Assembly (NCBI GenBank): GCA_022773425.1
Contig: JALFBM010000031.1
Coordinates: 13,905-77,904, forward strand
Reading direction: 5' to 3'
DNA: 64,000 nucleotides
From: Selenomonadaceae bacterium
GTDB taxonomy: Bacteria; Bacillota; Negativicutes; Selenomonadales; Selenomonadaceae
Below are positions 31,137-57,238 of the stretch, one piece after another. The position numbers and the translations under genes are program-made. The notes below the pieces were generated by a model, which searched no databases, had not been told where the DNA came from, and saw nothing but the letters and a program-made list of their open reading frames with translations. Positions within the stretch are counted from its first letter, which is position 1, and each line of letters begins with the position of its first letter.

Positions 31137-31190
31137 AAAAAAGTACTGCCGTACCAGCGGATGCGCGTTGGTACGGCAGTACTTTTTTTA
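31137..31190. terminator. Bidirectional terminator after purH
   Basis: 14-bp perfect stem agtactgccgtacc/ggtacggcagtact, flanked by A5 and T7. Confidence 0.85.
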
Positions 31191-31248
31191 TCCACTCTAT
31201 CCACAGATTTTATCCCGCTGTTTGTGGATATCTTTTCTTTTATCCACA
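31188..31248. repeat. DnaA-box cluster 1
   Basis: TTATCCACT (31188-96), CTATCCACA (31197-205), TGTGGATAT (31223-31, reverse) and a perfect TTATCCACA (31240-48). Confidence 0.7.
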
Positions 31249-31259: not shown

Positions 31260-31949
31260 TCACATCGAAATCCAGAGCCTATCCTCAACCTCATCGCGCA
31301 GGGTTTTGCCGCCCTGCTTCTTGCCCGTCAGCGTATTCTTCGGCATATTGCGAAGGACGCCGTGATAGATGTCATCCTCGATGGAGCCAGGCACAAGGTT
31401 CTCCCAATTGCTCATGCTGTACGCGCGCTCGTGAATGGCATTGTCCGGGCGCCCCGTGACCTCGAGCTCGCAGAGGAATTGGATCTGCTGATGGCTGGGA
31501 CGGATATAGTAATGCTCGAGGTAATAGGTCTGCGGATAGCGATACGCCGCGTCCTGCTTGGCCGCATCCTCCTTCTGCGTCCCATCGGAGTCCAGGCGCA
31601 CCCAGACGTCTACGATGTACTCGTCCCCAGAATGCGGCATCTGGATCCATTTCGCATTCTGCGTGTCCATCGCGTAGTTGAAGCCGTTGTCGTTCAGCAG
31701 CTGGATATAGCGCGTTTTCGCGGGCTTCCTTTTTTGTGCCGCGTGGCTCTTCGTCCGTTTGTTTTTTGCCGCGGGCTGCGCAGCGGCAGACTGCGCGGCG
31801 GCTTTATGCCGGTTTTGCATCTCCGCCAGGATTTCCTCTGCCGTCCGCGTGCTCCCCTTCGGATTTTCACCGGTTGCCGTGCAGAAAGCCGGCATGGCAA
31901 GCAGGCCGAGGGACAGCAGAACGGCCAGCAGATGTTTCGTGCTCTTCAT
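31260..31949 (-). CDS. Secreted hypothetical protein
   Basis: Signal peptide MKSTKHLLAVLLSLGLLAMPAFC, then a Lys/Ala-rich linker. No family recognised. Start at ATG 31949 after GGGAAGGGTGA. Confidence 0.5.
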   Translation of the reverse strand: MKSTKHLLAVLLSLGLLAMPAFCTATGENPKGSTRTAEEILAEMQNRHKAAAQSAAAQPAAKNKRTKSHAAQKRKPAKTRYIQLLNDNGFNYAMDTQNAKWIQMPHSGDEYIVDVWVRLDSDGTQKEDAAKQDAAYRYPQTYYLEHYYIRPSHQQIQFLCELEVTGRPDNAIHERAYSMSNWENLVPGSIEDDIYHGVLRNMPKNTLTGKKQGGKTLRDEVEDRLWISM

Positions 31950-31969
31950 CGCGATCACCCTTCCCATCT

Positions 31970-32686
31970 TCAGAGAATCGGCTTTTTCGCCGGGGTTCCG
32001 GCCTTGCGCGGATAAGCCTTCGGCGTCGGCATGGTCTTGTGCACCGCGATAACGGCGCGCACGTCATCGAGCCCCGGCAATGCGACGCGGCGCGTTTCCA
32101 TCCCGCTGCCGCCCATCACCTTCAGGGCCTTTCCGGCTTCCCGCAGCTCCTCCTCGTATTTCGCGCCCTTCAGCGCGAGGAAATACCCGCCGCGCTTCAC
32201 GAAGGGCATGCAGTACTCCGCCAGCACGCTGAGGCGCGCGACGGCGCGGCTCACAGCGATATCGTACTGCTCGCGATACGCCTTTTGGCGCGCGCCCTCC
32301 TCGGCCCGCGCATGCACGCAGGACACCGCCTCGAGCCCCAGGTCATCGACCACCGTCTGCAGGAAATGCACGCGCTTCTGCAGGGCGTCCATCAACGTCA
32401 GATGGATGCCCGGACAAAAAATCTTCAGCGGGATGCCGGGGAATCCCGCCCCCGTCCCGACGTCGATGACGGATACGCCGTCATGGAATAACTCGGGCGT
32501 GTAGGCGGACAGGCTGTCGACCATATGCTTGACCGCGACCTCGCGCGGCTCCGTGATGGCCGTGAGGTTCATCCTCTCGTTCCACGCGAGCAACAACCGC
32601 TGGTACTGGTCAAACTGCCGAAGCTGCTCATCGGAAAGGGACAGACCATACGCCGCCGCGGCTTTCCGCATCTCCTCCAAAAACAC
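31970..32686 (-). CDS. rsmG: 16S rRNA (guanine527-N7)-methyltransferase RsmG (GidB)
   Basis: 238 aa with the SAM motif VIDVGTGAGFPGIPLKI. GTG start after AGGTGA. Confidence 0.9.
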   Translation of the reverse strand: MFLEEMRKAAAAYGLSLSDEQLRQFDQYQRLLLAWNERMNLTAITEPREVAVKHMVDSLSAYTPELFHDGVSVIDVGTGAGFPGIPLKIFCPGIHLTLMDALQKRVHFLQTVVDDLGLEAVSCVHARAEEGARQKAYREQYDIAVSRAVARLSVLAEYCMPFVKRGGYFLALKGAKYEEELREAGKALKVMGGSGMETRRVALPGLDDVRAVIAVHKTMPTPKAYPRKAGTPAKKPIL

Positions 32687-32716
32687 GCTTGCTCACCTCA
32701 TTTTGGAATCTCTGCG

Positions 32717-33694
32717 TCAGATGACCCCCTGCTTGAGCAGGTCGGTCAGATGGATCATGCCGACCGGCTTGCCGTCCTCGATGACCGGCAGGACCGTGAC
32801 CGGCCGCGGCTGATGCTTTTCCATGACGGACAGCGCGGCCGTAGCCATCGCATCCTTCTTGATGGTCAGCGGCTCGCTATACATGATGTCCGCGACCGGC
32901 TTGTCGAGGAACGCATAGTCCTTGGCGATGGCGCGGCGAACGATGCCATCGGTCAGCAGACCGATAAACTTGCCGTCCCCGTCCGTGACCGAGACCGCAC
33001 CGAGCCCTTTCTCCGTCATCGTGAACAGCGCGTCCTTCACGGCGCGCGACCCTTCGACGACCGGATTCTCGTCCCCGGCGTGCATGACGTTCTCAACCTT
33101 CAGCAACAGGCGGCGTCCGAGCGCCCCGCCCGGATGGAACAGCGCGAAATCCTGCTTCGTGAAGTTGCGCACCGACATCGTCGCGACGGCGAGCGCATCG
33201 CCCATCGCGAGCGTGCAGGTCGTGCTGGTCGTCGGCGCGAGGTTCAGCGGGCAGGCCTCTTTCTCATGCCCGATATCGATGACGTAGTCCGCGGCCTGCG
33301 CGAGCTGCGACTCGCGGTTGCCCGTCATCGCGATGATGGTCGCGCCGATGCGGCGGATGATCGGCAGGATCTTGATGGTCTCCGTCGACTCCCCGCTGTT
33401 CGAAATGGCGATGACGACATCCTTTTCCGTGACCATCCCGAGATCCCCGTGGAACGCCTCCGCCGGATGCAGAAAGAACGACGGCGTGCCCGTGCTCGCG
33501 AACGTCGCCGCCATCTTGCGCCCGATGTGGCCGGATTTCCCCATGCCGGTCACAATGACGCGCGCCGTGCAGCTCAAAATGCACTCCACGGACTTCACAA
33601 ACCCGTCGTCGATGTTCTCTTTCAGCTTCCGGACCGCTGCAGACTCGATTTCCAGCGTCTCCACGGCCTTTTCTCGAATGGTTTTCTCCTTCAT
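32717..33694 (-). CDS. kdsD: Arabinose-5-phosphate isomerase (KpsF/GutQ/KdsD family)
   Basis: SIS domain (VTGMGKSGHIGRKMAATFASTGTP) plus a tandem CBS pair. AGGAGG RBS. Confidence 0.85.
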   Translation of the reverse strand: MKEKTIREKAVETLEIESAAVRKLKENIDDGFVKSVECILSCTARVIVTGMGKSGHIGRKMAATFASTGTPSFFLHPAEAFHGDLGMVTEKDVVIAISNSGESTETIKILPIIRRIGATIIAMTGNRESQLAQAADYVIDIGHEKEACPLNLAPTTSTTCTLAMGDALAVATMSVRNFTKQDFALFHPGGALGRRLLLKVENVMHAGDENPVVEGSRAVKDALFTMTEKGLGAVSVTDGDGKFIGLLTDGIVRRAIAKDYAFLDKPVADIMYSEPLTIKKDAMATAALSVMEKHQPRPVTVLPVIEDGKPVGMIHLTDLLKQGVI

Positions 33695-33823
33695 CTTGCT
33701 TCTTTTCCTCCTAGATCCATGTGCTCTGTCTTATTATACACGTTTTTCCCCGGCTTTGTATAGTTCTGCAGGAAAAAGCGGCCGCACGCCACAAGCGCAC
33801 AGCCGCTTCCCTGCCTGCGGGAT

Positions 33824-34267
33824 TCATTCCGCTTCGTCCTCATCCGCATACAGCCGAAAATCCGTATTCTGATGAATCTGGACGCCGTACGGCAGGAGGT
33901 CTGCGAGCTCGACCTGTTTGACCTCGCCCTTCATATTCGCCATAACGACCTCCGGCACGTGGAACTCGGCGAGCAGCTGACAGACCGCGCCGTTCGGGAT
34001 AAACGGCTCCTCCTTGTCCGCGACGACCGCAATGCCGTCGAACTCCCGCTTGCCATCCGCGACCGCGCGGTACAGCGCCACAGCCTCCGCCGTTGTGGAT
34101 AATGCGGGGATCGTATTTTCGATGTTGCAGCCCGCGTAGAAGGTCCCATCGCTCGCGAGGATGCATGCGCCGACCGGCACCCTGCCGTACGGCACATACG
34201 CATTGTGCAGAATTTCCATCGCCTGCTGCACCAGCGTATTCACCATGGATTCATTGAGCATTGCCAT
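33824..34267 (-). CDS. Cytidine-deaminase-fold protein with degenerate zinc site
   Basis: 147 aa, alignable by eye to B. subtilis Cdd (YxPYS..VGA..L..DG..Y.GCNIEN). However, CAE has become TAE and PCGACRQ has become PNGAVCQ. Confidence 0.7.
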   Translation of the reverse strand: MAMLNESMVNTLVQQAMEILHNAYVPYGRVPVGACILASDGTFYAGCNIENTIPALSTTAEAVALYRAVADGKREFDGIAVVADKEEPFIPNGAVCQLLAEFHVPEVVMANMKGEVKQVELADLLPYGVQIHQNTDFRLYADEDEAE

Positions 34268-34391
34268 ACTCCCGCCCCCTGTATCTTCAGATCCTCATTC
34301 CGTTCCGTAAAATCGGTCCTAGGTATATATTAGCCCTCCCGGCGCAAAAATCCTTTCTTCCGTCAAAAAATTTTCCGCTGTGCTGCGCAGC

Positions 34392-34672
34392 TTACCCACA
34401 GCATGCTGCACTTTATCCACGAAAATCTATGTTATCCACACAATAATCCACAGCTGTGTATAACTTTTTTTTGCACATGCTGCAAATCCGGTTCTCTTTA
34501 TGGATAAAAACGGTTTTTCTCCAACCTGTGCAAGAAAGCATCTTCCCTTCACCAAAATTGGTGGATAATGTGTATAAATCTGTGGATTACGCAAGATATC
34601 GTGTCCTTTTTCCTGCCGAACACCATATCTTGTGTCTCGCCGCAGGGAAATATCCCCCAACGACGTGGATAA
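34392..34672. repeat. DnaA-box cluster 2 (8 boxes, two opposed arrays around an AT-rich core)
   Basis: Forward boxes: TTACCCACA 34392, TTATCCACG 34413, TTATCCACA 34432 (perfect), TAATCCACA 34444. Reverse boxes: TATGGATAA 34499, GGTGGATAA 34560, TGTGGATTA 34581, CGTGGATAA 34664. The AT-rich stretch gtgtataactttttttttg lies between the arrays. Confidence 0.75.
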
Positions 34673-35131
34673 TCACCAGGACCGAAACGGGTGTTTCTGC
34701 AGACTGGAGTTGTAATATTGTATCTGCCCGGAGACCTCCTCGCCAAGCCATGCAGGCCGCGAAAACGGCGCATCGGCCGACGGCAGTTCGACCTCCGCCA
34801 CGCGGAGTCCTTCGTTGGCCCCCCCGAACACGTCGATTTCCCAAACGGACTTATCCACCGTTTCCACATAGCGCGTCTTTTCGATGATGGGCTGCACGCA
34901 GAGCGCGAGCATGGCCTCGGCATCCGCCAGTGGCACCTCGTACTCGAATTCGAGTCGGCGAATCCCGTCGTTCTTCCCCTTGACGGTCAAATACCCTTTT
35001 CCGGCGCGGATGCGGACGCGCACCGTCCGCCCGGGCTCCGTCGACAGATACCCCTGCGCGATCCGGTCTCCCTTCTCTTGCGGCGTCCAACTGTCCTTGA
35101 CCAAAAATTTACGCTCGATTTCCTCTGCCAC
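34673..35131 (-). CDS. CYTH-domain protein (triphosphate tunnel metalloenzyme)
   Basis: EIERKFL (ExExK) signature. The likely start is GTG 35131, 7 nt after AAGGAAG; the ORF-track start is TTG 35149. Confidence 0.75.
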   Translation of the reverse strand: MAEEIERKFLVKDSWTPQEKGDRIAQGYLSTEPGRTVRVRIRAGKGYLTVKGKNDGIRRLEFEYEVPLADAEAMLALCVQPIIEKTRYVETVDKSVWEIDVFGGANEGLRVAEVELPSADAPFSRPAWLGEEVSGQIQYYNSSLQKHPFRSW

Positions 35132-35271: not shown

Positions 35272-36510
35272 TTGCCAAATTCCACTATCCCTCCCCGGCG
35301 GAGCTCGCGCAGAGAACGCCGCAAAGAGAAACACGTCTGGCCGTGGGTTCTCCTGTTCCTGTGCTTCATCGCCGCGGCAGCCGCCGGTGCGCTGTTCGCC
35401 TCGAACAGTCTGCTCGACCGCAACGGCAGCCTGGCGGAGGACGGCCTGATGACCGCCAAGGACAAATCGACCATCATGATTATGGGTGTCGATACACGCG
35501 AAGACGATGTCGGCCGCTCGGACACCCTGATGCTCGCGACCATTGACCCGAAAAAGGATCAGGCCGCCCTCCTCTCCATTCCGCGCGACACGCGCGTGAA
35601 AATCAAGGGGCACGGCTTTGACAAGATCAATGCAGCCTACGCGTACGGCGGCGAGCGCCTGACGCAGAGCACCGTCGAGAACTTCCTCGGCGTCAACGTC
35701 GACCACTACATCGTCATCAACACGCACGCGTTCCAAAAGATCATCGACGCGCTCGGCGGCATCGACATCAACGTCGAAAAACGCATGTACTACGAGGACC
35801 CATGGGACGACGACGGGGGCCTCCTAATCGACCTCCAGCCGGGCATGCAGCATATGGACGGCAAGACCGCCGTGACCTATGTGCGCTACCGCGATCAGGA
35901 GGGCGACATCGGACGCATCAAACGCCAGCAGAAATTCATCGCGGCCTGCATGGACAAGCTGACGAGCCCGTCCATCATCCCAAAACTCCCGGCGGTCATC
36001 CACGAAGTCATCAGCTCCGTAAAGACCGATCTTTCCGTGCGCCAGCTGCTCGAGTTTGCCGGCACGCTGAAAGAGTCTCGCAAGAACGGGCTCAAGACGG
36101 ATATGGTGCCGGGCAAGCCACTCTACATCAACGGCATCAGCTACTGGATCCCGGATATCGCCGAGCTGCGCGCCACGCTCGCGAATACGCTTGGGCTGCA
36201 TCTCTCGGGACGCGCCCAGCAGGAGATGCAGCGCGCCCAGCAGGAATACAAGGATTCCATCCCGGCCACGGCAAAGGAAGTCCCGGCCAGCGATACGTCC
36301 ATCGGCAAGGTCTCGAAGAGCAGCCACAAGGAAAGCGGTCTGAAGGAAAGCCCGAAAAAGGAGAGCTCCCAGAGCAGCAGTTCCTCGCGCAGCTATGACC
36401 GCCGCTCCGAAGACACGGCGGCCAGCCGCAGCGAACGCGGTGAGGACGTCAGCGTCAACGCCGGCGGCTCCGCCCCATCGCGCACCGAGAATTCCGGCAA
36501 GGGGCAGTAA
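35272..36510 (+). CDS. LytR-CpsA-Psr (LCP) family protein
   Basis: N-terminal TM segment, LCP core (MGVDTREDDVGRSDTLMLATI...SIPRDT) and a Ser/Lys/Glu-rich C-terminal tail. TTG start. Confidence 0.85.
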   Translation: MPNSTIPPRRSSRRERRKEKHVWPWVLLFLCFIAAAAAGALFASNSLLDRNGSLAEDGLMTAKDKSTIMIMGVDTREDDVGRSDTLMLATIDPKKDQAALLSIPRDTRVKIKGHGFDKINAAYAYGGERLTQSTVENFLGVNVDHYIVINTHAFQKIIDALGGIDINVEKRMYYEDPWDDDGGLLIDLQPGMQHMDGKTAVTYVRYRDQEGDIGRIKRQQKFIAACMDKLTSPSIIPKLPAVIHEVISSVKTDLSVRQLLEFAGTLKESRKNGLKTDMVPGKPLYINGISYWIPDIAELRATLANTLGLHLSGRAQQEMQRAQQEYKDSIPATAKEVPASDTSIGKVSKSSHKESGLKESPKKESSQSSSSSRSYDRRSEDTAASRSERGEDVSVNAGGSAPSRTENSGKGQ

Positions 36511-36544
36511 GGACCGATAAAAATTGCATATGTTTACATAAAAA

Positions 36545-36590
36545 GCAGCAATCCAGCGCATGATATTCCGTTGGATTGCCGCTTTTTTTT
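36545..36590 (+). terminator. Rho-independent terminator of LCP gene
   Basis: Stem gcagcaatcca/tggattgccgc (1 mismatch) followed by T8. Confidence 0.75.
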
Positions 36591-36636
36591 CTTTTTTTGA
36601 TAAGTTTCCTTGATCGAAACCATGGAAACTTCATAT

Positions 36637-36664
36637 TTGTCATCCCCAAAAATGGCGATATAAT
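36637..36664 (+). promoter_or_regulatory. Promoter of malic enzyme gene
   Basis: TTGTCA (36637-42), 16 nt, TATAAT (36659-64). It leaves a leader of about 165 nt. Confidence 0.55.
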
Positions 36665-36832
36665 AGAGTCAAAGGAAAAAAATGTTGTAACCGATTACAA
36701 AGTTTTTGAGAACGGTAACCGATGGCACAGAAAAATCGCCCCGGTTCCCGTAAACTAGTCTACAGACAAGGGAAATCCCCCGAGGGAAACGATACCCAAA
36801 ACGGGAGAACGAAAAGAAAGGAAGTCTTTCGC

Positions 36833-38074
36833 ATGGCAGCAAACGTAACGGACGAAGCCCTGCAGCTTCACGCACGCCATCACGGCAAAATTGAGGTCAC
36901 GAGCAAGGTGCCGCTGCGCACGGCAAAGGATCTGACGCTCGCCTATTCACCAGGCGTCGCAGCGCCGTGCCTCGCGATCCAGGATAATCCGGAAAAAATC
37001 TACGACTACACCGCAAAGGGCAACAGCGTCGCCGTCGTGACAAACGGAACGGCCGTCCTCGGGCTCGGCAGCATCGGCGCGGGCGCCGGCATGCCGGTCA
37101 TGGAGGGCAAAGCCATCCTATTCAAGGGCTTCGCCGGCGTCGACGCCTATCCGATTGCACTCGACACGAAGGACCCGAAGGAAGTCATCCGCGCCGTCCA
37201 ACTCATCGCGCCGGGCTTCGGCGGCATCAACCTGGAGGACATCAAAGCGCCGGAATGCTTCGATATCGAGCGCGAGCTCAAGAGAACCCTCGACATCCCG
37301 GTGTTCCATGATGACCAACACGGCACGGCCATCGTCGTCGTCTCCGCGCTCATCAATGCGTTCCGGCTGATCGGCAAGCGATTCGAGGACGCGAAGGTCG
37401 TTGTCAACGGCGCAGGCGCCGCGGGCCAGGCCATCACGCGCCTGCTCTACCACATGAAGACGCGCCATATCATCCTGTGCGACTCGCACGGCGCCATCTA
37501 CGCCGGCCGTCCGGACGATATGAATCCGTACAAGGATGACATCGCGAACATCACGAACCTCGAGAAAGAGGCCGGCACACTCGCCGACGTCATGAAGGGC
37601 GCCGATGTCTTTATCGGCGTTTCGGTCGCCGGGGCCGTCACCGAGGATATGGTCCGCTCGATGAACAAAGACGCCGTCATCCTCGCGATGGCAAACCCGA
37701 CGCCGGAGATCATGCCTGAGCTCGCGAAAAAGGCCGGCGCGCGCATCGTCGCAACCGGCCGCTCCGACTACCCGAACCAGGTCAACAACCTGCTCGCGTT
37801 CCCGGGCATCTTCCGCGGCGCCCTCGACGTCCGCGCGAAGGAGATCAACGAGGAGATGAAGGTCGCCGCGGCACACGCGATTGCAGACCTCATCGCCCCG
37901 GAGGACATCACCGAGGACAACGTCATCGCGAGCCCGTTCGACGCGGACGTCGCGCCGAACGTCGCCGCGGCCGTCGCCAAAGCGGCTCTCGAGACCGGCG
38001 CCGCCCGCCGCAAAGACATCACCCCCGAGCAGGTCGCGGCCCACACCCGCCAGCTCCTCGCGGCCCAGAACTGA
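36833..38074 (+). CDS. NAD(P)-dependent malic enzyme (no PTA domain)
   Basis: 413 aa from ATG 36833 ([13 protein letters not shown]), with [28 protein letters not shown] and VVNGAGAAG. Confidence 0.9.
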
Positions 38075-38100
38075 AAAAGCATACCCTCCCTTTCCAAAAG

Positions 38101-38139
38101 CCGCTGCACAGGAATCCCCCGTGCAGCGGCTATGTTTTT
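38101..38139 (+). terminator. Rho-independent terminator of malic enzyme gene
   Basis: Stem ccgctgcac/gtgcagcgg followed by CTATGTTTTT. Confidence 0.7.
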
Positions 38140-38160
38140 GCCCCATGATGACAAAAAGTT

Positions 38161-38218
38161 GGATTTCATTCCTAAAACATGATAAAATATAGGAGAGTTA
38201 GGATTTCATTCCTAAAAC
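38161..38218 (+). repeat. Two copies of an 18-bp direct repeat bracketing a putative extended -10
   Basis: GGATTTCATTCCTAAAAC at 38161-78 and 38201-18, separated by cATGATAAAATataggagagtta (TGaTAAAAT). Confidence 0.7.
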
Positions 38219-38253
38219 TATGTATCTTGAAGACTTTTTAGGAGTTGATTCCC

Positions 38254-39465
38254 ATGAAATGGATTGCCAGACCGGAGTATCTCGATTTTCTGCAACGCTT
38301 CCGAGGACGCGACCTGATCAAAGTGGTTTCCGGCGTCCGCCGTTGCGGGAAATCCACGCTGTTCCTGCTTTACCGGCAATGGCTTCTGCAACATGGCGTC
38401 TCATCCGAACAGATTATCACGATCAACTTCGAGGATCTAGCCTTTGAGTCCTTATGTGACTACCGCGCTCTGTACCAATACATCACGAGCCGGATGCTCC
38501 CGGACAAGATGAACTATATTTTCCTCGACGAAATCCAGCATGTCCCATCGTTTGAGAAGGTCGTAGACAGCCTGTTTATCAAAGAAAACGCAGACGTCTA
38601 TATCACGGGTTCCAACGCATACTTCATGTCCGGAGATCTGGCGACGCTCCTGACTGGCCGCTATGTGGAACTGAAGATGCTGCCGTTGTCATTTTCCGAA
38701 TTCTGTCAAGGCCTTGAAGGCAATCTGACTTTACCGGCAAAATACAACGCGTATATCCGGAACAGTTCTTTCCCTTACGCCTTGCAATTCCAAGACACGC
38801 CGGAAGCCGTAGAGGAATATCTGTCCGGCATCTACAATACCATTCTCATCAAGGATACACTGCGCCGTATGGGCAGCAGCGACACGATGCTGATGGAAAG
38901 CCTGATGAAATACCTCGCCGCCAATATCGGCAGCCTGATTTCCCCGAACAAAATCGCGAACTCCCTGACCAGCATGGGGCGGAAAGTCGACAACAAGACT
39001 ATCGAAAGGTACCTGCAGGGGCTCAAGGACAGTCTGCTCATCTATCAGGCAGACCGATATGATATACGCGGCAAACAGCTGCTGAAAATCAACGCAAAAT
39101 ATTACCTGGTCGACCCGGCCTTCCGCCGCCTGCTCATACAGGACAATGGCCGCGATACCGGCCATATCCTAGAGAATGTTGTTTATCTGGAACTCCTGCG
39201 ACGCGGTGGCAAAGTCTACGTTGGACAGCTTCCAAAAGGCGAGATCGACTTCGTCGTCGAACGCCCCGGCACGCGGGAATACTACCAAGTCGCAGAAAGC
39301 ACTCTGCAGCCGGAGGTCCTGGACCGCGAACTGAAACCGCTCAAAGCCATCCGCGACCAATACCCGAAATACCTGCTGACCCTCGACGAAATCGCCCCCG
39401 AAGCCAACTACGACGGTATCCAGAAGAAAAATGTCCTGCAGTGGCTCTTGCATACAAATGGGTAA
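38254..39465 (+). CDS. AAA-type ATPase with DUF4143 C-terminal domain (COG1373-like)
   Basis: P-loop GVRRCGKST and a Walker B-like IFLDEIQ. Start at ATG 38254, 9 nt after AGGAG. Confidence 0.7.
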   Translation: MKWIARPEYLDFLQRFRGRDLIKVVSGVRRCGKSTLFLLYRQWLLQHGVSSEQIITINFEDLAFESLCDYRALYQYITSRMLPDKMNYIFLDEIQHVPSFEKVVDSLFIKENADVYITGSNAYFMSGDLATLLTGRYVELKMLPLSFSEFCQGLEGNLTLPAKYNAYIRNSSFPYALQFQDTPEAVEEYLSGIYNTILIKDTLRRMGSSDTMLMESLMKYLAANIGSLISPNKIANSLTSMGRKVDNKTIERYLQGLKDSLLIYQADRYDIRGKQLLKINAKYYLVDPAFRRLLIQDNGRDTGHILENVVYLELLRRGGKVYVGQLPKGEIDFVVERPGTREYYQVAESTLQPEVLDRELKPLKAIRDQYPKYLLTLDEIAPEANYDGIQKKNVLQWLLHTNG

Positions 39466-42916: not shown

Positions 42917-45346
42917 TCAGTCGTTTTTCTGATCCATGACGGCCATGGAGGCGACCTGGTCGCCTTCGTCGAGGTTCATGATCTTGACGCCCTGCGTGTT
43001 GCGGCTGATGGTCGAGATCTCGGCGACGGTCGTGCGGATGACGATGCCATTCGCCGTGATGAGCATGAGCTCCTGATCCGGCAGGACGACCTTGAAGCCG
43101 ATGACCGGGCCGGTCTTTTCGGTGACCTTGAGGTTCTTGAGGCCCGTGCCGCCGCGGTTCTGTGCGCGGTACTCATCGGTCGTCGTGCGTTTGCCGTAGC
43201 CGCCCGCCGTCACGGTCAGGACATCCGCATTATGGCGCATGATGTCCATGCCGACGACTTCGTCGCCCAGGCGGAGGTTGATACCCTTCACGCCGCGCGC
43301 GATGCGGCCCATCGAGCGGACATCCTGCTCGGAGAACGAGATGGCTTGGCCGTCCTTCGTGCCGAGCATGATGTAGCTGTCGCCGTCCGTGAACTTGACG
43401 CCGATGAGGTCATCGTCGTCCGCGAGGTTGATGGCGTTGAGCCCGCCCTTATGCAGGTTGCGGAACTCGCCGAGGCTCGTCTTCTTGACGATGCCCTTCT
43501 TCGTCGCCATGAACAGGAAGCGGTCTTCCTTGAATTCCTTGACCTGGATGATTGCCGTGATCTTCTCATCCGGCTGGAGCTGCAGCAGGTTCACGATAGC
43601 CGTGCCCTTCGCCTGGCGGCTCGCCTCGTTGATCTGATAGGCTTTCAGATGATAGACGCGCCCGCGACTCGTGAAGAACAGGATCGTGTGATGCGTCGTC
43701 GTCACGAGCATGTTCTCGACGAAATCCGCCGCCTTCGTGCCCATGCCCTTGATGCCCTTGCCGCCGCGGTTCTGGCGGCGGTACGTATCGAGTGGCATGC
43801 GCTTGATGTAGTCGTTATGCGTCAGCGTGATGACGACATCTTCCTCGGCGATGAGATCCTCCGCGCTCATATCCGACATGTCGATCGTGATGCGCGTGCG
43901 GCGGTCGTCGCCGTATTTCTCCTTGACCTGCGTAAGCTCGTCCTTGATGATGCCGAGGATGCGCGTCTCGTCGGCGAGGATGGCCTTGTACTCCTCGATG
44001 CTCTTCAAGACTTCCTGATACTCTTCCTCGATCTTCTCGCGTTCGAGGCCGGTCAGGCGCTGCAGACGGAGGTCGAGGATAGCCTGTGCCTGCTTCTCGC
44101 TGAGCTTGAAGCCCTCCATGAGGGCCGTGCGCGCGATATCGGCCGTGCGGCTCTCGCGGATCGTCGTGATGACGGCATCGAGATGATCGAGCGCGATGGT
44201 CAAGCCTTCCAAAATATGCGCGCGGGCCTCGGCCTTGCGGAGCTCGTATTTCGTCCGGCGGGTGATGACGTCCTCCTGATGCAGGATGTAGTAGTGGAGG
44301 ACTTCCTTGAGGTTCAGGATCTTCGGGCGGCCGTCGACGAGCGCGAGCATGATGACGCCGAAGCTGTCCTGCAGCTGCGTGTGCTTGTAGAGCTGGTTCA
44401 AGATGACGTTCGCGTTCGCGTCGCGGCGCAGGTCGATGACGATGCGCATGCCGTTGCGGTCCGACTCATCGCGCAGATCCGTGATGCCCTCGATTTCCTT
44501 GTTGCGGACGAGGTCGGCAATCTTCTCGATGAGGCGCGCCTTGTTGACCTGATACGGCAGCTCCGTCACGACGATGCGCGGCTTGCCGTTCGACATGGTC
44601 TCGATATGCGCATTCGCGCGCAGCTTGATGACGCCGCGGCCCGTCGTGTAGGCCTGGCGGATGCCGTCCGTGCCGAGAATGAGTCCGGCCGTCGGGAAAT
44701 CCGGTCCTTTGATGACCGTCATGAGCTCGTCAATCGTCGCATCCGGGTTATCGATGAGCATCAGCGTGCCGTCGATGACCTCGCGCATGTTGTGCGGCGG
44801 GATGTTCGTCGCCATGCCGACCGCGATGCCGCTCGTGCCGTTGACGAGCAGCTGCGGGAATTTCGCCGGCAGCACCGACGGTTCCTTCAGCGACTCATCG
44901 TAGTTCGGCACAAAATCGACCGTATCCTTGTCGATATCCTGCAGCATGAGCTCGGCAATCTTCGACATGCGGACCTCGGTGTAACGCATGGCAGCGGCCG
45001 GGTCGCCGTCAACCGAGCCGAAGTTGCCGTGCCCGTCCGCGAGCATATAACGCATGGAGAAATCCTGCGCCATGCGGACGATCGCGTCGTAGACTGAGCT
45101 GTCGCCGTGCGGATGATATTTACCCAAGACTTCACCGACGATACGCGCCGATTTCTTGTATGGCTTGTTGCTGCCCATGCCGGCTTCCTGCATCGCGTAA
45201 AGGATGCGGCGGTGCACCGGCTTCAGGCCGTCCCGGACATCCGGCAGCGCGCGGGAGACGATAACGCTCATCGCATAGTCGATGTAGCAGTGCCGCATCT
45301 CGTGCTCCAGATTGACGGGTACAACCTTTCCCTGAACAAAATCCAC
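42917..45346 (-). CDS. gyrA: DNA gyrase subunit A
   Basis: 809 aa with [17 protein letters not shown], active-site AAMRYTE and a C-terminal beta-pinwheel. GTG start after GAGGTGA. Confidence 0.97.
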
Positions 45347-45458: not shown

Positions 45459-45956
45459 CTACTTTTTCCTCGTCTGTGCCGCGCGTTTTTGCCCATCCGA
45501 CAGGCTGCCGATCCGCATCGGCTCCCTGCCCTCCGGCTGATAGTAGAAGCTTTCGTCGCGGGCAAAGACCTCCGCGCGGCGAAAATCCGACTGCAGGACC
45601 TCCAGATCCGCTTCCTTCATGCCGTAGAGCGCTGCAACCTCCTCCAGCGTCTGCCGCTGGAACACCTTGCGCCGGTCCTTGCCGTGAAAAAGCAGCCAGT
45701 TGTAGTACTGCCAAAGCGTCATGCTCAGCAGGATCAGCGCGGCCGCCGCGAATAGCACTTCGACGATAAACAGCGCCTGCTCCCGGTACGCTCCGATCAC
45801 GAAATAGACATAGAACGAAACGAGCAGGAACGCCCACAAAAGGAGATCGAAGGCTGCGACCATAGCGAGTTCCAGCAGACGAATCCCCCAATGCCTTTTG
45901 TAGCCGACATCGATAATCGGCCGGTTCTCGCCGGCCTGTTTCTTTTCTGGCATCAT
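45459..45956 (-). CDS. pgaD: PgaD-like small inner-membrane protein of PNAG synthase
   Basis: 165 aa from ATG 45956 (MMPEKKQAGENRP), with two TM helices and a cytosolic tail. ATGA overlap with the pgaC stop. The ORF-track 362-aa version is a spurious extension. Confidence 0.6.
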   Translation of the reverse strand: MMPEKKQAGENRPIIDVGYKRHWGIRLLELAMVAAFDLLLWAFLLVSFYVYFVIGAYREQALFIVEVLFAAAALILLSMTLWQYYNWLLFHGKDRRKVFQRQTLEEVAALYGMKEADLEVLQSDFRRAEVFARDESFYYQPEGREPMRIGSLSDGQKRAAQTRKK

Positions 45957-47233
45957 CGAAGCCCCCTGTCCGGACTGCTCCAGGTAGCGTTGGTGTTCAG
46001 ATCGCGCAGAAACCCTTTCGGCAGCGAGCAGACCGATGCCAGGGAATTGAACATCCAGTAGAACAGCGGATACCATGGCGCCCAAAAGAAGATTTTCCAA
46101 AGGCCGGCATCGTAGTGCGAATCCAGCAGCAGGCTCACGAGAATCTGCAGCAGGCTGACGCTCGCAAGAATCATGCCGTTCCAGCCCCAAAACAGGCCGA
46201 ATACCTCCTGCGGCAGCACATCCTGCCCGCTGAGGAAATTCACGAGCACGTGGAGCCCGTTTACAAACAGCAGGAAGAAAAACGCCAGCGCCCAGAACGC
46301 AGAGAAGATATAGTCCATATAGATGGGCCAGCTGCGGCGCTCTTTCCAGGAATGCCAGATGTTGCTGTGCAGGCGAAGCACCTCGATGCCGCCCTGTGCC
46401 CAGCGCAGCCTTTGCCGCCACAGACCCCGGATAGTCTCCGGCACGAGCATCCAGCAGAGCATGTTCGGCTCGTAGCGGATATCCCAAAAATGCGTTTCCA
46501 GCCGCCAGGTCATCTCGATATCGTCGGTGACCGAAACCGGGTTCCAAAGGCCGGAATGGATAACCGCCGTGCGGCGCCAGGCCGCGACGACGCCGGAAAC
46601 GGTCATGACCTTGCCGAGCAGGCGCTGTGTCCGTTTGATCAGGCCAATGACGCTCGAGTATTCCGCAATCTGGATTTTCGCGAGCAGGGTGCTGCGGTTA
46701 CGGATGCGCGGATTGCCCGTGACCGCACCGACGCGCGGGAATTTCACGAAATGCCATACCGCCCATTCGATGGCGTGCCGGTCCAGCATGGAATCCGCGT
46801 CCAGCGTCACGAGCACGTCTCCGTGGCTCACGGCAAGCGCCAGGTTGAGCCCCTGCGCCTTGCCGAGGTTCTGCCGCAGATGCACGATCCGCAGCGCCGA
46901 AAACTCCCCGAGGAGCCGGTCGAGCACGCGCTGCGTGCCGTCCGTGCTCGCGTCATTGATCACGATGACCTCAAGTCTCGGGTAGTCGTTCGCGAAAATC
47001 GACCGCACGGCATCCTCGATGTCCTGCTCCTCATTATGCGCCGGAATCAGCACGGAAACCAGCGGATACGCGTCGAGCACCGGCGGCGTTCTCGGCACGC
47101 CGCGCTCGCGCCGCCAATAAAAGAAAATTCCTCCCATCATCCAAACCATACTCATGATGACCGGATAGTAGAAGACATAGTTCATCAGCCAGCCGTAACC
47201 GGATGAAAGAATCTCTGTCATCACAACGTCCAT
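45953..47233 (-). CDS. pgaC: Poly-beta-1,6-N-acetyl-D-glucosamine synthase (GT2)
   Basis: VLIPAHNEE, LDADS and QRLRWAQGG (QxxRW) motifs, with flanking TM helices. Confidence 0.9.
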   Translation of the reverse strand: MDVVMTEILSSGYGWLMNYVFYYPVIMSMVWMMGGIFFYWRRERGVPRTPPVLDAYPLVSVLIPAHNEEQDIEDAVRSIFANDYPRLEVIVINDASTDGTQRVLDRLLGEFSALRIVHLRQNLGKAQGLNLALAVSHGDVLVTLDADSMLDRHAIEWAVWHFVKFPRVGAVTGNPRIRNRSTLLAKIQIAEYSSVIGLIKRTQRLLGKVMTVSGVVAAWRRTAVIHSGLWNPVSVTDDIEMTWRLETHFWDIRYEPNMLCWMLVPETIRGLWRQRLRWAQGGIEVLRLHSNIWHSWKERRSWPIYMDYIFSAFWALAFFFLLFVNGLHVLVNFLSGQDVLPQEVFGLFWGWNGMILASVSLLQILVSLLLDSHYDAGLWKIFFWAPWYPLFYWMFNSLASVCSLPKGFLRDLNTNATWSSPDRGLR

Positions 47234-47250
47234 GTAGTATCCCTTCTGCG

Positions 47251-49119
47251 TTACTTATCCCACCGATAAAAGCTGTGCGGATAAACGCCGCGATTCCTCA
47301 TCCCCGCCTTCCGCAGGGTATCGAGTTCCGCCCGGACCTCCTTGTCCGAGAGCCATTTCTCTTTGGCCCAGTCATAGGTCTGCACCTTGACGATGGTCCG
47401 CTTCTCGCCGCCGGCCTTCTGTATGGCCTTCGCGGTTTTCCTTAGTGCCTCGTCCGGGTGCTTTTCCTTGTCCATATACGGATAGGCCATGACGACCGTA
47501 TAATCGTAGCGCGTCAGATAATCCGGGTACGACTGCGCGAACCATTCCTGTGAGGCGGGATTGGTCACGGCCTCTGCGTAAATATCCCGCATGGCAAGGC
47601 CCTCCGGACGGCTCTCACGGAAGGACGAGAGACAGACATCCGCCACGTGGTCGAGCTGTCTGGTCTTGAGCTCCGTCCATTGCCGCATCGCCTTCGGGTC
47701 TGTGCGCGAAAGGGTCCCGAGGTCTTTGCCATACGCTTTCTGATAGGCCGCGCGGGCCGGTGCCGATACGTCCTCGAAATCGTTGAGGTAGAGATCGTCC
47801 TGAAACAGGATGCCCTCTGCCGGGGTATACCGCCCGAGGTCGCGGAACAAGGCGGCGGCCTTCTGCAGCGACGCCTCATCAAAGGGGCTGATGCGCGCAT
47901 ACCAACCGGCCTTGTCCGGGGATTCCGCCCGAACGAGATTGCTGCCGTCCTTCGCGAAAAAGGCCTGGCAAGTCAACGCGGGCATCCACGCAACGACCTT
48001 GATGCCCGCCTGCTGCAGGGCATTGCAGACATCGTTGAACGCATCGGCCGCGACCGGCACCTCCTGGTTGTAGAAATACACCTGCTGATAGTTGCCGTCT
48101 CCGTCTGGATCGGCAAAGGCCTGCAGCGCCACGAGCGAGATGTGATTGTCCTTGAGCTCCCGGACCGTCCATGCGATATTCTGACGGAATGCCCGAGCAT
48201 CCTTGTTGTAGAGTGGATCGATGTCGAGCTGTACCATGCGGATGGGGCGGCTGTCCCATGCCGCGTGATCTTTTGTCAGGAGCGACGAAAGCCCTTTGAC
48301 CGTCACATCCGACCCCATGATCATGCGCCGCGCATAGGTCTCGTACTTGGGCTCCGCCTCGTTGATACCGCCGTCGAGCAGGAAGGAAGCAGCCATGCCG
48401 TGTTTTTCCGCCGCCCGGATCGACGCGCCCGAATACATACCATAGGGCCAGACGATCGCCTTCGACGGATGCCCGAGATGCAGCTCGAACAGCCGCTGCG
48501 TCTCGCGCATATCGTCGTCCAGGCGCTTTTCGTACGCTGCCTCGGTCTCATAGTGGCCCTGCTGGTACAGGTGGTTCGCCGCGATGCCGCTCGCACCGCC
48601 AAGCGGCGCCATCGCGCGCTGCTTATGCATGGCATGCGTATGCGAGACAACCGTCACGAGACCGCTCTGTTCCATTTCGCGGAGCTGTGCCCAGCTCGCC
48701 ACCGAGCGGACATCCGTCGGCTTGCCCTCCCCGTCCGTCCACGACGTCACGATGGCGAGCATGCACGGAATATGCTCTCGTTTGAGGATGGGATACACCT
48801 TCGTGTAGAACGACGCATAGCCGTCATCAAAGGTCAGCATGACGCTTTTTTCCGGCAGAATGCGCTTGCCCTGTGTATAAGCGATATACTCATCCAACGT
48901 CACAAAATGGTACTGCTGCGCCTTCAGGTACTCGACCTGCCGCAGAAAATTCTCACGCGAAACGGCAAAATAATCCCCGGAGCGATCGATTTCATGGTAG
49001 CAGAGAATCGGTAGCTGCGTCTTTGCCAGGACCGGCGCAGGGCCAACCGCCAAAGTGCAGACCATGAGCAGCAGGAAAAGCAGCCCTCGCAGGACACGGA
49101 CGAAAGGTTTGTTTTTCAT
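47251..49119 (-). CDS. pgaB: PNAG N-deacetylase/export lipoprotein PgaB-like
   Basis: Signal peptide, a CE4 domain (FDDGY, SHTHAMH) and a C-terminal glycoside-hydrolase-like domain. The ATG 49119 start is preferred over GTG 49131. Confidence 0.85.
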   Translation of the reverse strand: MKNKPFVRVLRGLLFLLLMVCTLAVGPAPVLAKTQLPILCYHEIDRSGDYFAVSRENFLRQVEYLKAQQYHFVTLDEYIAYTQGKRILPEKSVMLTFDDGYASFYTKVYPILKREHIPCMLAIVTSWTDGEGKPTDVRSVASWAQLREMEQSGLVTVVSHTHAMHKQRAMAPLGGASGIAANHLYQQGHYETEAAYEKRLDDDMRETQRLFELHLGHPSKAIVWPYGMYSGASIRAAEKHGMAASFLLDGGINEAEPKYETYARRMIMGSDVTVKGLSSLLTKDHAAWDSRPIRMVQLDIDPLYNKDARAFRQNIAWTVRELKDNHISLVALQAFADPDGDGNYQQVYFYNQEVPVAADAFNDVCNALQQAGIKVVAWMPALTCQAFFAKDGSNLVRAESPDKAGWYARISPFDEASLQKAAALFRDLGRYTPAEGILFQDDLYLNDFEDVSAPARAAYQKAYGKDLGTLSRTDPKAMRQWTELKTRQLDHVADVCLSSFRESRPEGLAMRDIYAEAVTNPASQEWFAQSYPDYLTRYDYTVVMAYPYMDKEKHPDEALRKTAKAIQKAGGEKRTIVKVQTYDWAKEKWLSDKEVRAELDTLRKAGMRNRGVYPHSFYRWDK

Positions 49120-49124
49120 GGCGT

Positions 49125-51020
49125 TCACCACCCAATCTCATAATGGACATCAAAGCCATAGCCATTCGGACGACGGTGCTCGCCGCCCGGCTGATGGAAA
49201 TACCAGTTGTACTGCGCACCGAGCAGCAGCGATTGACCGGCCGGCAGATCCTCATGCCACGCAAGGCGACTGTACGGGGAAAACGACATCGGGTCATCGT
49301 CATCCCGGCTCCAGTCCAGCATCTGGATCCACTCGATCTGGCGCCCGCGCCGCGGGATAAACCATTTGCGGCTGAACCCGGCCGCGTAATCGACGCTGCA
49401 ATCCGGCGAATCGTACCGATCCCGTTCCTCGCGATAGTGCTCATGCCCATAGGAAAAGAGCAGGGCATCCCGGTAGGTATGCCGCAGCGACAGGCGGTAA
49501 CTGCCATCCAGCCCCCACGCGCGGGAGTCGTTTCCATCGGCTAGGGCGCTCCACGCATAATCCACGCCGATCCGCCAGCGCTCCCACGGCAGGAGATCCA
49601 GATGCAGGCTGTGGAAATCCTCGCAGATCTTGTCGGCCACCGTCCCCGCCGCATCGTGCGGGCGGCGCCCTATCGCAAAGCTGAGGCGCATCGCGTCGCT
49701 GCCCTCATAGGTCAGGCTCGCCGTGTAACCGCCACGAAAGCCGCTGCCGAAGGCATTGCCGGTCATCTGTGCCTCGCCGCGCTCGAATCGATACGCTGCG
49801 CCGGCGTATGACGAACGATACGACGTGTGCAGCCGGTCATCCTGCAGACGGGTGAAGCCGAGCCCCGCGACGCCGTAGAGATTGCCGCCAAGATACGCAC
49901 GATAATCCGCCGTCCACGCGGACGCGTGGTTGCGCTTGTTATCGAGCGAGGAGGTATAGGCAAGCGCGAGATCCTGATCCGTCTGATGCGCGAGCAGCGC
50001 CCCGGCGGAAAGCACGGCCGGGTGGTCGTTCGCCTCCGAGAGCGCCTGGGAAAATTCGCATTCGGCAGCGCCACGCCAGCCCTGATTGGCCGCATTCTTG
50101 ACGAGAGCCGCGCGCGCACGGGTGCGGACCTCCAGATTCCCGCTTTTCGTCAGCGGTTTCAGGACGCGCTGGATTTCATGAAAATAACCCTTCCCGTCCA
50201 GCAGCTCGTCGCGAACAAAATTCTGCCTTTCATTCTGCAGATCGTCCGTCGCCGCCACGAGCGCCTCGCCATAGCGCAGCGCGTAGCGTTCCGCCTCGCC
50301 GGACGTCTCGCCGGCGAGCCGGTAAACCAGGCGGGCCATTTCCAGCTTGCCCTCGCGCAGATAGGCATCACCGTCGCCGGCGACGGCATCCGCAAATTTT
50401 GGATTATGTCGCAGGACCTCCCGATACTCTGCCGCGGCCTTCCCTTCCCGGCCGAGCATGGCCAGTGCATAGGCGTTCGACAGATGCACGTAATCGAGGT
50501 TTTCCCGCTTGTTGATGAAGGCGTAGACCGCACTCGCCTGACGCCAGTCACCCGCGCGCAAATAAATATCCCCGACCGTCTGCAGGCCATACGACGGCAC
50601 CTGCTGCCAATCCGGACAGTAGGTCCGAAATACCTCGAGCGCCTCTTTGCCGCGGTTGTCAAAGCGCAGGGCCATCATGTAGTCGCAGATCATATGGCCG
50701 CTGGCCTTCCTGCTCTCGACATAGGGCTTTAGGATCCGCGCGGAGCGGTCGTATTCACCGGCATGGATGTAGAGTGCCGCCCGTCTCGCATCGACATCAC
50801 GGACAAGATCTTCTGCGGCGGATGGCGCAGCCTTTTTTGCCTGCGCAAAAGCGTCCTCTGCCGCGACGAAATTGCCGCGGCCCATTTCCTCCTCGCCCTG
50901 TGTCAGGAACACCGTATACGCCGACGGCGCCGCGTCCACCAGGCCGTCTCCAGCCTGCCAAATCCAAAGACAGGTGCAGCCGAGCAGCGCCAGGCCTTTT
51001 CTTCCTATGAAAACAGCCAT
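49125..51020 (-). CDS. pgaA: PgaA-like outer-membrane PNAG export porin (TPR + beta-barrel)
   Basis: 631 aa with a signal sequence, TPR-like N-half and a Gly/Tyr/Arg-rich alternating C-half ending in aromatic ...HYEIGW. Operon position upstream of pgaB. Confidence 0.65.
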   Translation of the reverse strand: MAVFIGRKGLALLGCTCLWIWQAGDGLVDAAPSAYTVFLTQGEEEMGRGNFVAAEDAFAQAKKAAPSAAEDLVRDVDARRAALYIHAGEYDRSARILKPYVESRKASGHMICDYMMALRFDNRGKEALEVFRTYCPDWQQVPSYGLQTVGDIYLRAGDWRQASAVYAFINKRENLDYVHLSNAYALAMLGREGKAAAEYREVLRHNPKFADAVAGDGDAYLREGKLEMARLVYRLAGETSGEAERYALRYGEALVAATDDLQNERQNFVRDELLDGKGYFHEIQRVLKPLTKSGNLEVRTRARAALVKNAANQGWRGAAECEFSQALSEANDHPAVLSAGALLAHQTDQDLALAYTSSLDNKRNHASAWTADYRAYLGGNLYGVAGLGFTRLQDDRLHTSYRSSYAGAAYRFERGEAQMTGNAFGSGFRGGYTASLTYEGSDAMRLSFAIGRRPHDAAGTVADKICEDFHSLHLDLLPWERWRIGVDYAWSALADGNDSRAWGLDGSYRLSLRHTYRDALLFSYGHEHYREERDRYDSPDCSVDYAAGFSRKWFIPRRGRQIEWIQMLDWSRDDDDPMSFSPYSRLAWHEDLPAGQSLLLGAQYNWYFHQPGGEHRRPNGYGFDVHYEIGW

Positions 51021-53706: not shown

Positions 53707-54077
53707 GCCATAGGGCCGGGTTCCACGGATAGGCTTTGCCCTTTCCGCAGCCCGAGCCGGTCGGCTTCTCCCGCGGGGAGTTCCACGACCGCCCAGGCAG
53801 AGAGGCATAGCGAAAGACCGATCCAGGGCCGCAGATGCCGGACGACCTTCTGAATGCGCAGCGTTTTGTCGAGATAGACCGCATCGATGGCAAAGCGCAT
53901 AAAGCACATATGGATGCTGTTACAGGGCGCAAGAAGCAGCCCATGCTGCGCCGGCAGTTTTTTTCGGAGCATCAGTCCGCGAAAGCGAGAGAAAAAAGAA
54001 TCCGCCACCTCCAGCGTGAGGGGCGGATTCTTTTTGTCGGCTTTTGCAGAAGGAATGTGGCAGCGTATCGTTTTCAA
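53703..54077 (-). CDS. DUF192-family protein
   Basis: 124 aa with FRGLM...LL..PCNSIHMCFMRFAIDAVYLD, a pattern I associate with DUF192 (COG1430). TTG start after GGAGGGA. Confidence 0.55.
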   Translation of the reverse strand: MKTIRCHIPSAKADKKNPPLTLEVADSFFSRFRGLMLRKKLPAQHGLLLAPCNSIHMCFMRFAIDAVYLDKTLRIQKVVRHLRPWIGLSLCLSAWAVVELPAGEADRLGLRKGQSLSVEPGPMA

Positions 54078-54115
54078 CGCAAAAATCCCTCCATCATATA
54101 AGGCATAGAACGCCT

Positions 54116-56445: not shown

Positions 56446-56537
56446 CGCATCTGCCTCCTGGTATGGATGTATATTTTCTGCCTGCAGCAAACGCTTGCCG
56501 GCAGTCGTTTTCAAAAGAAAAGAGCAATGAGCATGGC

Positions 56538-57011: not shown

Positions 57012-57058
57012 CTGTCATACCTTCTACTTTGGACAAAAATTATTTGCTGGCAGTGCCG

Positions 57059-57238
57059 TTAACCAAACATCGTAGCAACACCATCGAATGCATTCTTGAC
57101 CTTATTCTGCAGAGTTCCGCCGTTGCCGACAGCAACGGCTACGACGACGATGAATGCCAGGATCAAGGCATACTCGACGATGCCCTGTGCCTTCTCGCTC
57201 AGATAACGAGCCTTTACGTAATCGATGATCTCCTTCAT
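57059..57238 (-). CDS. flp: Flp-family type IVb pilin (59 aa)
   Basis: Not in the ORF track (under 60 aa). The reverse strand gives MKEIIDYVKARYLSEKAQGIVEYALILAFIVVVAVAVGNGGTLQNKVKNAFDGVATMFG*. Flp motif G/IVEYALIL. GGAGGAG RBS 6 nt upstream. Confidence 0.9.
   Translation of the reverse strand: MKEIIDYVKARYLSEKAQGIVEYALILAFIVVVAVAVGNGGTLQNKVKNAFDGVATMFG

Follow-up and report, generated by a model that had tools for sequence, protein, structure and literature searches.

The 64,000-nucleotide stretch of DNA analyzed here, referred to as the window, originates from a Selenomonadaceae bacterium (assembly GCA_022773425.1, contig JALFBM010000031.1, positions 13,905 to 77,904 of the forward strand) and contains a dense cluster of DnaA boxes between a gene for a CYTH-domain protein and the cytidine deaminase gene cdd. 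Both genes are encoded on the minus strand: the CYTH gene (152 aa, 34673-35131, Pfam PF01928), whose start codon is that of the gene call in locus L001, is the constant upstream neighbor of the cluster, and cdd (33824-34267, NCBIfam) is the gene downstream of it in the window. The spacer between them is 405 bp long (34268-34672), holds the entire cluster and has a GC content of 44% in comparison to 59% for the window. An initial annotation had described this locus as eight boxes in opposed arrays flanking an AT-rich core and had proposed either a candidate chromosomal origin (oriC) or a major DnaA-binding locus. It had also pointed out that rsmG and gyrA are nearby and that dnaA, dnaN and rpmH are missing from the window, which agrees with the gene calls (rsmG 31970-32686, gyrA 42917-45346) and with the annotated window genes, none of which is one of these three. 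A tblastn search with an approximate B. subtilis DnaA query gave no dnaA match, neither for the window nor for the first 57 related loci, and an Rfam scan of 30-36 kb was likewise negative.

Using a search for TTATCCACA with at most one mismatch we identified 24 DnaA boxes in the 64-kb window, whereas 6.2 are expected from 100 shuffled controls, none of which reached this number. Ten of the 24 matches are located between 34392 and 34672. As about 0.03 boxes are expected per 281 bp at the shuffle background rate, chance is excluded as an explanation; by our own Poisson arithmetic the probability of at least ten boxes in 281 bp is of the order of 1e-22. Read in the direction from CYTH to cdd, the first box (TTATCCACG, 34664-34672, minus strand) adjoins the CYTH stop codon. 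It is followed by a tandem triple on the same strand, which consists of TAATCCACA (34581-34589), a 3-bp gap with the sequence 'gat', TTATACACA (34569-34577) and, directly abutting it, TTATCCACC (34560-34568). A further box-like 9-mer on the minus strand (TTATCCATA, 34499-34507) precedes a head-to-head group, in which the last box pointing towards cdd (TTATACACA, 34455-34463, minus strand) faces, at a distance of 2 bp, a first opposing box (TAATCCACA, 34444-34452, plus strand) and then a second one, which is a perfect TTATCCACA (34432-34440, plus strand). Two extra boxes on the plus strand (TTATCCACG, 34413-34421; TTACCCACA, 34392-34400) complete the cluster. The opposed arrangement of the initial annotation therefore stands, as do its four forward boxes at 34392-34452, one of them perfect and two spaced at 12 bp (34432 and 34444). 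The total of eight was too low, since six instead of four boxes are present on the reverse strand (34455, 34499, 34560, 34569, 34581 and 34664).

To compare this locus within the family, we collected related loci via homologues of CYTH and gyrA and aligned seven lineages, namely the window, L003, L133, L055, L058, L135 and L137, which cover a GC content of 41-59%. None of the 120 best-ranked gyrA homologues belonged to a complete genome. The CYTH orthologues are 62-93% identical, and all seven orthologous loci examined carry the cluster. Between six and nine boxes are found in the spacer behind CYTH in each of the six loci other than the window, for example six in L055 (56% GC), eight in L058 (41% GC), in Mitsuokella (L137, 54% GC) and in the window's genus (L133, 57% GC), and nine in Selenomonas ruminantium (L135, 48% GC). 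The layout is invariant in the seven lineages: one box at the CYTH stop codon, then the tandem triple, in which 3 bp separate the first box from the second and the third abuts the second, and finally the head-to-head group, in which a box is followed after 2 bp by a first opposing box and this one after 3 bp by another. A box adjoins the CYTH stop codon in 7/7 lineages, the triple is kept in the form box-gaT-box-box in all of them, the position of the 34455 box does not change, and TGTGGATAA at the second opposing box is likewise invariant in 7/7. The dinucleotide at the head-to-head center varies by lineage (GC, GT or AG), with fixed boxes on both sides. Taken as a whole, this is a conserved cis-element of about 230 bp, fixed directly behind CYTH.

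In the window's genus the cluster has two boxes more than this common layout. One of them (34413) is kept in L003 and L133 only and is therefore genus-specific; the other (34392) is kept in L003 and weakened in L133 to TCACCCACA with two mismatches. The sole non-conserved box is the 9-mer at 34499, which is lost in L003 and L133 and aligns with a promoter-like motif (TATATTATAGTAGGAAA) of L055, L058, L135 and L137. Across the seven lineages the boxes are invariant and the spacers between them average 59% column identity; in comparison to the sister species, too, the boxes are retained and the intervening sequence has changed. Judging from this alignment, the boxes of the cluster are under purifying selection. 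The second proposal of the initial annotation, a major DnaA-binding locus, is thus supported as far as comparisons of this kind reach, because the boxes stay the same while the spacers diverge. It is hardly credible that the 9-mers are instead bound by another protein, for example a dimeric regulator on the palindrome CCACAGCTGTGG, and resemble DnaA boxes by coincidence. The head-to-head pair does form a near-perfect palindrome, but most boxes are in tandem and not palindromic, the center of the palindrome varies across lineages with the full 9-mers fixed, and the same 9-mer consensus fills the dnaA-flanking origins of the family.

Opposed box arrays with a local run of eight T residues (T8), three plus-strand genes that start about 600 bp to the right and the nearby rsmG gene could be taken as signs that the cluster is the chromosomal oriC and that dnaA has been displaced. 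The gene calls confirm the strand pattern described before, i.e. genes nearly all on the minus strand to the left, three plus-strand genes at 35272-39465 and, from 39.5 kb onward, genes including gyrA again on the minus strand (up to 63 kb). CYTH, which is located to the right of the cluster, is a minus-strand gene as well, and altogether at least 15 of the 20 genes to the right have this orientation. On either side of 34.4 kb the plus strand has a negative GC skew, with values near zero only at about 39-45 kb. To remove the effect of gene orientation, the skew at third codon positions (GC3 skew) was compared between genes on the same strand: for plus-strand genes it is -0.27 on the left side of the cluster and -0.24 on its right side, and for minus-strand genes it is close to zero on either side. 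The plus-strand genes on the right are therefore unlike the minus-strand genes on the left, which indicates that replication forks do not leave from 34.4 kb. Negativicutes have G-rich leading strands and a very strong gene-strand bias, with more than 80% of the genes on the leading strand in Veillonella parvula (PMC4070872). The entire window looks like a single replichore, which is copied from right to left with the minus strand as leading strand. In six lineages the sign of the skew is unchanged across the cluster, and it flips at the dnaA-linked oriC (from -0.21 to +0.15 in L062 and from -0.18 to +0.17 in L092).

The AT-rich core does not fit an unwinding region either. The two arrays do not flank it, but meet at the 2-bp gap 34453-34454 between the boxes at 34444 and 34455. 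The proposed unwinding stretch 34455-34500 has an A+T content of 65%, and its first nine bases form a box. What is left without the boxes at its ends (34464-34498) includes the T8 run and contains no DnaA-trios, and T8 is not conserved: in the sister species it is replaced by GC-richer sequence, GCACGGGAAAG in L003 and GCGCAGGAAAG in L133. The 30-mer with the lowest GC content of the spacer is located at 34345, near the start of cdd and not between the arrays. Neither the sister alignment nor the GC scan of the spacer revealed a conserved AT-rich unwinding element beside the boxes.

For a more specific marker of origins we used the basal unwinding system (BUS), in which one DnaA box or a tandem pair is followed, after no more than 16 bp of spacer, by three or more DnaA-trios (3'-GAT-5'; CTA when read along the strand of the box), as defined by Pelliciari et al. 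(2021, PMC8287927). Following this work, the trios within 16 bp of each box were scored out of six. The best score of the window cluster is 2/6, which arises from overlapping boxes; 1-3 of six trios and no trio array within 16 bp of any box were found at the CYTH cluster in the five lineages scanned, and none of 140 boxes of the window, with up to two mismatches allowed, reached 4/6. A TAG TAG within TATATTATAGTAGGAAA was also considered as a pair of DnaA-trios, but was rejected, since the correctly oriented box is more than 40 nt away and a different box intervenes.

The true origins of the family look different. A metagenome scan with TerC of a window-species contig yielded about 25 Selenomonadaceae loci with the order rpmH, four to seven boxes, dnaA, four to seven boxes and dnaN. 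In 8/8 dnaA-dnaN spacers examined, tandem boxes are followed by a 4-bp GC-rich spacer and CTACTACTA (CTA CTA CTA), with 4-5 of six trios, in agreement with the published definition of the BUS. The resulting unwinding module is regular and consists of two boxes overlapping by one base, the 4-bp spacer and CTA CTA CTA CG(N) ... CTA (L073 at 3717-3757; dnaA-dnaN spacers of L062, L087, L090, L092, L094, L115 and L124).

Such an origin is also present in the genus of the window. L073 and L133 are identical over an overlap of 5,591 bp and therefore originate from one contig (86,934 bp), whose gyrA is 99% identical to that of the window. It has the order rpmH, seven boxes, dnaA, six boxes, dnaN, then gyrA and, further on, CYTH, eight boxes, cdd, kdsD and rsmG, and the CYTH-cdd spacer is 30.8 kb away from the dnaA-dnaN spacer. 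The position of dnaA had been named in the initial annotation as one check of its origin proposal, and dnaA-linked box clusters are located 30.8 kb from the cluster on a contig of the same genus. In L058 the order is dnaN, S4, recF, DciA, RemA, gyrB and, further on, Ppx, gyrA, malic, LCP, CYTH and the cluster, which is about 16 kb away from dnaN. L062, which belongs to the same species as L058, covers the other side with purH, unk, rsmG, mnmG, mnmE, jag, yidC, yidD, rnpA, rpmH, five boxes, dnaA, four boxes and dnaN. Contigs of the window species itself (L067-L069; 10 kb, RcpC 100% identical) continue past the right end of the window with secretin, RcpC, A24, M48, TerC and gyrB, at which they end; this order leads in the direction of dnaN and dnaA. 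Extrapolation would put oriC at approximately 72-74 kb in window coordinates, some 37 kb from the cluster and to its right, on the side predicted by the skew.

Among the features by which oriC is recognized, the cluster shows box clustering. A BUS, an unwinding element, a switch in skew or orientation and the adjacency to dnaA/dnaN are missing, the last of which is typical of Firmicutes-type oriC, but not strictly defining. In all probability the chromosome is not unwound at the cluster. Together with a canonical dnaA-linked origin on the sister contig and in every relative examined, with the missing trios and switch, the non-conserved T8 and an adjacency of rsmG that probably exists only through rearrangement (see below), this makes the reading of the cluster as chromosomal oriC extremely improbable. 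Slightly more probable, although still very unlikely, is a latent or secondary origin-like region of the P. aeruginosa oriCII type, which would serve plasmid or backup replication in a chromosome that normally starts at dnaA. The number of boxes is equal to or higher than that of either half of a true origin (eight versus seven and six in the sister species), and oriCII is a precedent for a conserved cluster near gid genes that replicates plasmids and is dispensable on the chromosome (PMC13438810). A best score of 2-3 of six trios in five lineages, in comparison to 4-5 of six in all eight true origins, the missing conserved AT-rich unwinding element and the undisturbed skew at the cluster speak against it.

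The gene that follows the cluster varies. It is cdd in the window and in L055, whereas L058 and L135 have mgtC first and cdd second. In Mitsuokella (L137, 6469-6818) there is no such gene, and the intact cluster is followed only by a strong terminator hairpin and by a phosphotransferase system (PTS) gene in convergent orientation. In six of the seven lineages the cluster is thus located upstream of cdd or mgtC-cdd, and it always follows CYTH, whatever comes next. Four lineages have the motif TATATTATAGTAGGAAA within the cluster, after the triple and ahead of the head-to-head boxes (L055 at about 10625-10645, L058 at about 16060-16080, L135 at about 6645-6665 and L137 at about 6660-6680). At the same aligned position a weak sigma-70-like promoter pointing downstream was called in L135, L055 and L058. 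This promoter-like site consists of TATACA or TTTGCA, 16-17 nt and TATAGT and is directed towards mgtC/cdd, with the head-to-head boxes about 40-60 nt downstream of it. If it fires in L137, a short non-coding transcript with DnaA-box sequences would result. In the window's genus the promoter-like motif is decayed, and the boxes persist and are more numerous. A consensus promoter scan of the window gave no convincing cdd promoter; CTAATATATA (34324-34333, minus strand), about 60 nt upstream of the start of cdd and invariant in L003 and L133, might be the -10 region of such a promoter, but the scan did not call this site.

These findings bear on the question whether the cluster is an operator only, at which DnaA represses or activates the mgtC/cdd unit (here also kdsD-rsmG) and links pyrimidine salvage to replication without a measurable effect on initiation. 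The position upstream of cdd or mgtC-cdd in most lineages and the promoter-like site in front of the head-to-head boxes are in line with this possibility, and DnaA is known as a transcription factor at box clusters (PMC3245932; PMC13438810). We regard it as rather unlikely, as the cluster of Mitsuokella is intact with nothing downstream to regulate, the boxes persist and even increase in number where the promoter-like motif has decayed, and eight to ten boxes far exceed what an operator needs. The persistence of the boxes despite a decayed promoter motif and a missing downstream gene suggests selection for DnaA binding itself, i.e. for a sink.

Taken together, we consider it probable that the element is a non-origin DnaA-box cluster (DBC), which is separated from the true dnaA-flanking origin by some 31-37 kb on the dnaA side and acts as a sink for DnaA and/or as an operator for the downstream genes. 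Of the features that characterize non-origin DBCs, the near-consensus intergenic boxes outside oriC, distinct from the clusters that flank dnaA, and the location near oriC, which most DBCs share, are found here. Stable occupancy by DnaA would be expected, with indirect support from the invariance of the boxes in the seven lineages. DnaA would bind the cluster cooperatively and with high affinity, as at the origin boxes of the family with the same consensus. The cluster would be replicated soon after initiation, so that its copy number doubles early, and the doubled cluster could draw DnaA away from oriC and delay re-initiation, as is the case for oriC-proximal DBCs of B. subtilis. In addition, bound DnaA may act as a roadblock to transcription from the promoter-like site into mgtC/cdd, including the pyrimidine-salvage gene cdd.

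Several points weigh against this interpretation or limit it. Titration of DnaA and local gene regulation cannot be separated from each other by sequence alone. A plasmid-borne DBC of B. subtilis did not complement the over-initiation phenotype (PMC3245932), so that even in this organism titration alone does not explain everything. Of 12 consensus positions, the promoter-like sites agree with just 9, and such matches in AT-rich spacers are not clearly above the expectation from shuffled sequences. Furthermore, the oriC position given for the window is extrapolated from a contig of a sister species and about 2 kb of same-species sequence past the window.

The closest known counterparts are the six DBCs of B. 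subtilis, most of them near oriC, which bind DnaA, regulate neighboring genes and restrain initiation (Okumura et al., 2012, PMC3245932; Smith and Grossman, 2015, PMC4447404); the major DnaA-binding regions of this organism have more boxes than the weaker ones (PMC4447404). Like these, the cluster described here is an intergenic array of many TTATCCACA boxes outside oriC but within tens of kb of it, in a genome of the Firmicutes lineage with a bipartite origin flanking dnaA and with a promoter-like site adjacent. It differs in its flanking genes CYTH and cdd, as there is no orthologue among the six loci of B. subtilis, and in the one-three-three layout with family-wide conservation, both of which were established by sequence comparison. 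The oriCII of P. aeruginosa is a box cluster upstream of gidA that supports plasmid replication and is dispensable on the chromosome, and DnaA uses it to control the adjacent operon (PMC13438810). It shares with our cluster the conserved, origin-like accumulation of boxes near gid genes that is not the working chromosomal origin; in our case, however, there is no unwinding module, and the link to rsmG is secondary and genus-specific. With a canonical bipartite Firmicutes oriC with BUS the cluster has the box consensus and a similar or higher number of boxes in common, but it lacks the module of tandem boxes, spacer and trios, the adjacency to dnaA/dnaN and the strand switch, all three of which are present in the real origins of the family. 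The datA locus of E. coli would be comparable as a cluster of DnaA boxes outside the origin that lowers the initiation potential and whose replication comes soon after that of oriC, but there is no sequence relationship between the two. At datA, DnaA-bound ATP is hydrolyzed in an IHF-dependent manner by means of a few boxes and an IHF site (PMC4585315). No IHF-type site came to light in the cluster described here, although no search was aimed at one. Bacteria of the Firmicutes lineage generally lack IHF. In the literature we found no paper on DnaA-box clusters in Negativicutes or on a connection of a DnaA-box cluster with cdd.

The initial annotation missed a second, smaller cluster of four boxes in 61 bp (31188-31248; boxes at 31188 and 31197 on the plus strand, 31223 on the minus strand and a perfect one at 31240 on the plus strand), which is placed between the terminator hairpin of purH and the stop codon of a 235-aa gene. 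L003 holds both clusters of the window, and the boxes of the second one are retained in L002 and L003 despite a replaced adjacent hairpin. There is no counterpart in the orthologous spacer of L062 (41% GC). We also considered a bipartite origin flanking the rsmG operon, formed by the clusters at 31.2 and 34.4 kb, and rejected it, because the second cluster is genus-specific, neither cluster has trios and there is no skew switch.

The neighborhood of rsmG itself can be traced by a comparison of window positions 31260-34267 with L062 (1-8304) and L133 (19039-22430). The purH-unk-rsmG block is orthologous in the window and L062 (unk 50% identical). In L062 rsmG adjoins mnmG on the rpmH side of oriC, and in the window's genus it adjoins kdsD-cdd-CYTH on the dnaA side. 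From this we infer an inversion that would span oriC and reach from mnmG to beyond cdd, after which all genes would have stayed co-oriented with replication. Such a rearrangement would explain why rsmG is located beside a non-origin cluster. In line with this, rsmG and kdsD adjoin the cluster only in the window's genus, and there is no rsmG nearby in the more distant relatives. A scan of the genome collection with KdsD as query gave 52 loci, of which only L003 is syntenic; elsewhere kdsD is found in other contexts.

Some further features of the region should be mentioned. Between the first box and the triple lies an inverted repeat, CAAGATAT...ATATCTTG, with arms at 34592-34599 and 34625-34632. 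The arms are extended to 10 bp in L003, L133 and L055 and are not kept in L058, L135 and L137 with their lower GC content; as no T-run follows, the repeat (34592-34632) is not an obvious terminator. Outside the spacer, a perfect TTATCCACA is located within the coding sequence of cdd (34094-34102), about 300 bp away from the cluster, and a one-mismatch box within the CYTH gene (34851-34859). One of the three plus-strand genes that had been read as a sign of a strand switch, encoding an AAA_14/DUF4143 ATPase (38245-39465), is missing from L002 and L133 and is likely an insertion. An operon for poly-N-acetylglucosamine (45953-51020, between Ppx and gyrA) with pgaC/pgaB and a PgaA-like tetratricopeptide repeat (TPR) protein has no counterpart on the sister contig L133, on which gyrA comes immediately after Ppx, and probably represents an island acquired by insertion. 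A complete Tad/Flp pilus locus (52315-63958; Tad, DUF192, T2SSF, T2SSE, TadE, CpaE-like, CbiA, secretin, RcpC and A24 peptidase) separates the regions of gyrA and gyrB; strains of one relative differ in its presence (L058 versus L059). Left of the PFK gene (about 1-28600 of the window compared with 1-8600 of L002), L002 carries SLH-domain porins, alanine racemase and DUF951. L002 is 97% identical to the window in the spacers, and this differing left context is a synteny break within the species group. SLH-porin genes of a close relative likewise point to the Selenomonadaceae as the family of the window. The runs in which the sequence of the window was found are assembled DNA metagenomes from pig gut, with no RNA or raw-read run among them, and the window matches a contig of the metagenome-assembled genome (MAG) GCA_034087385.1, which ends 2.4 kb past the right end of the window.

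The results also call for caution in the annotation of origins. A non-origin cluster near the classical origin neighbors rsmG and gyrA can exceed either half of the real origin in its number of boxes, so that oriC would be put in the wrong place on a fragmented MAG if only boxes were counted. The two are cleanly told apart by the DnaA-trio module and by the skew of genes on the same strand, and the regular unwinding module is a clean marker of oriC for MAGs of Selenomonadaceae. The analysis also places the origin of a genus of Selenomonadaceae from the pig gut and documents a rearrangement that spans it, and it adds the Negativicutes to Bacillus as a group with oriC-proximal DnaA-box clusters. 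Beyond that, we tentatively raise the possibility that the cluster serves the whole family Selenomonadaceae, which belongs to the diderm Firmicutes, as a dedicated element to regulate the availability of the initiator, similar to datA or the DBCs. Its fixed one-three-three layout would have been kept at least over the divergence covered by genomes of 41-59% GC, and even without a downstream gene. If this is true, no earlier element of this kind would have been defined by its conservation instead of by genetics, and it would provide a compact model of how the spacing and orientation of boxes build a DnaA complex that does not unwind DNA.

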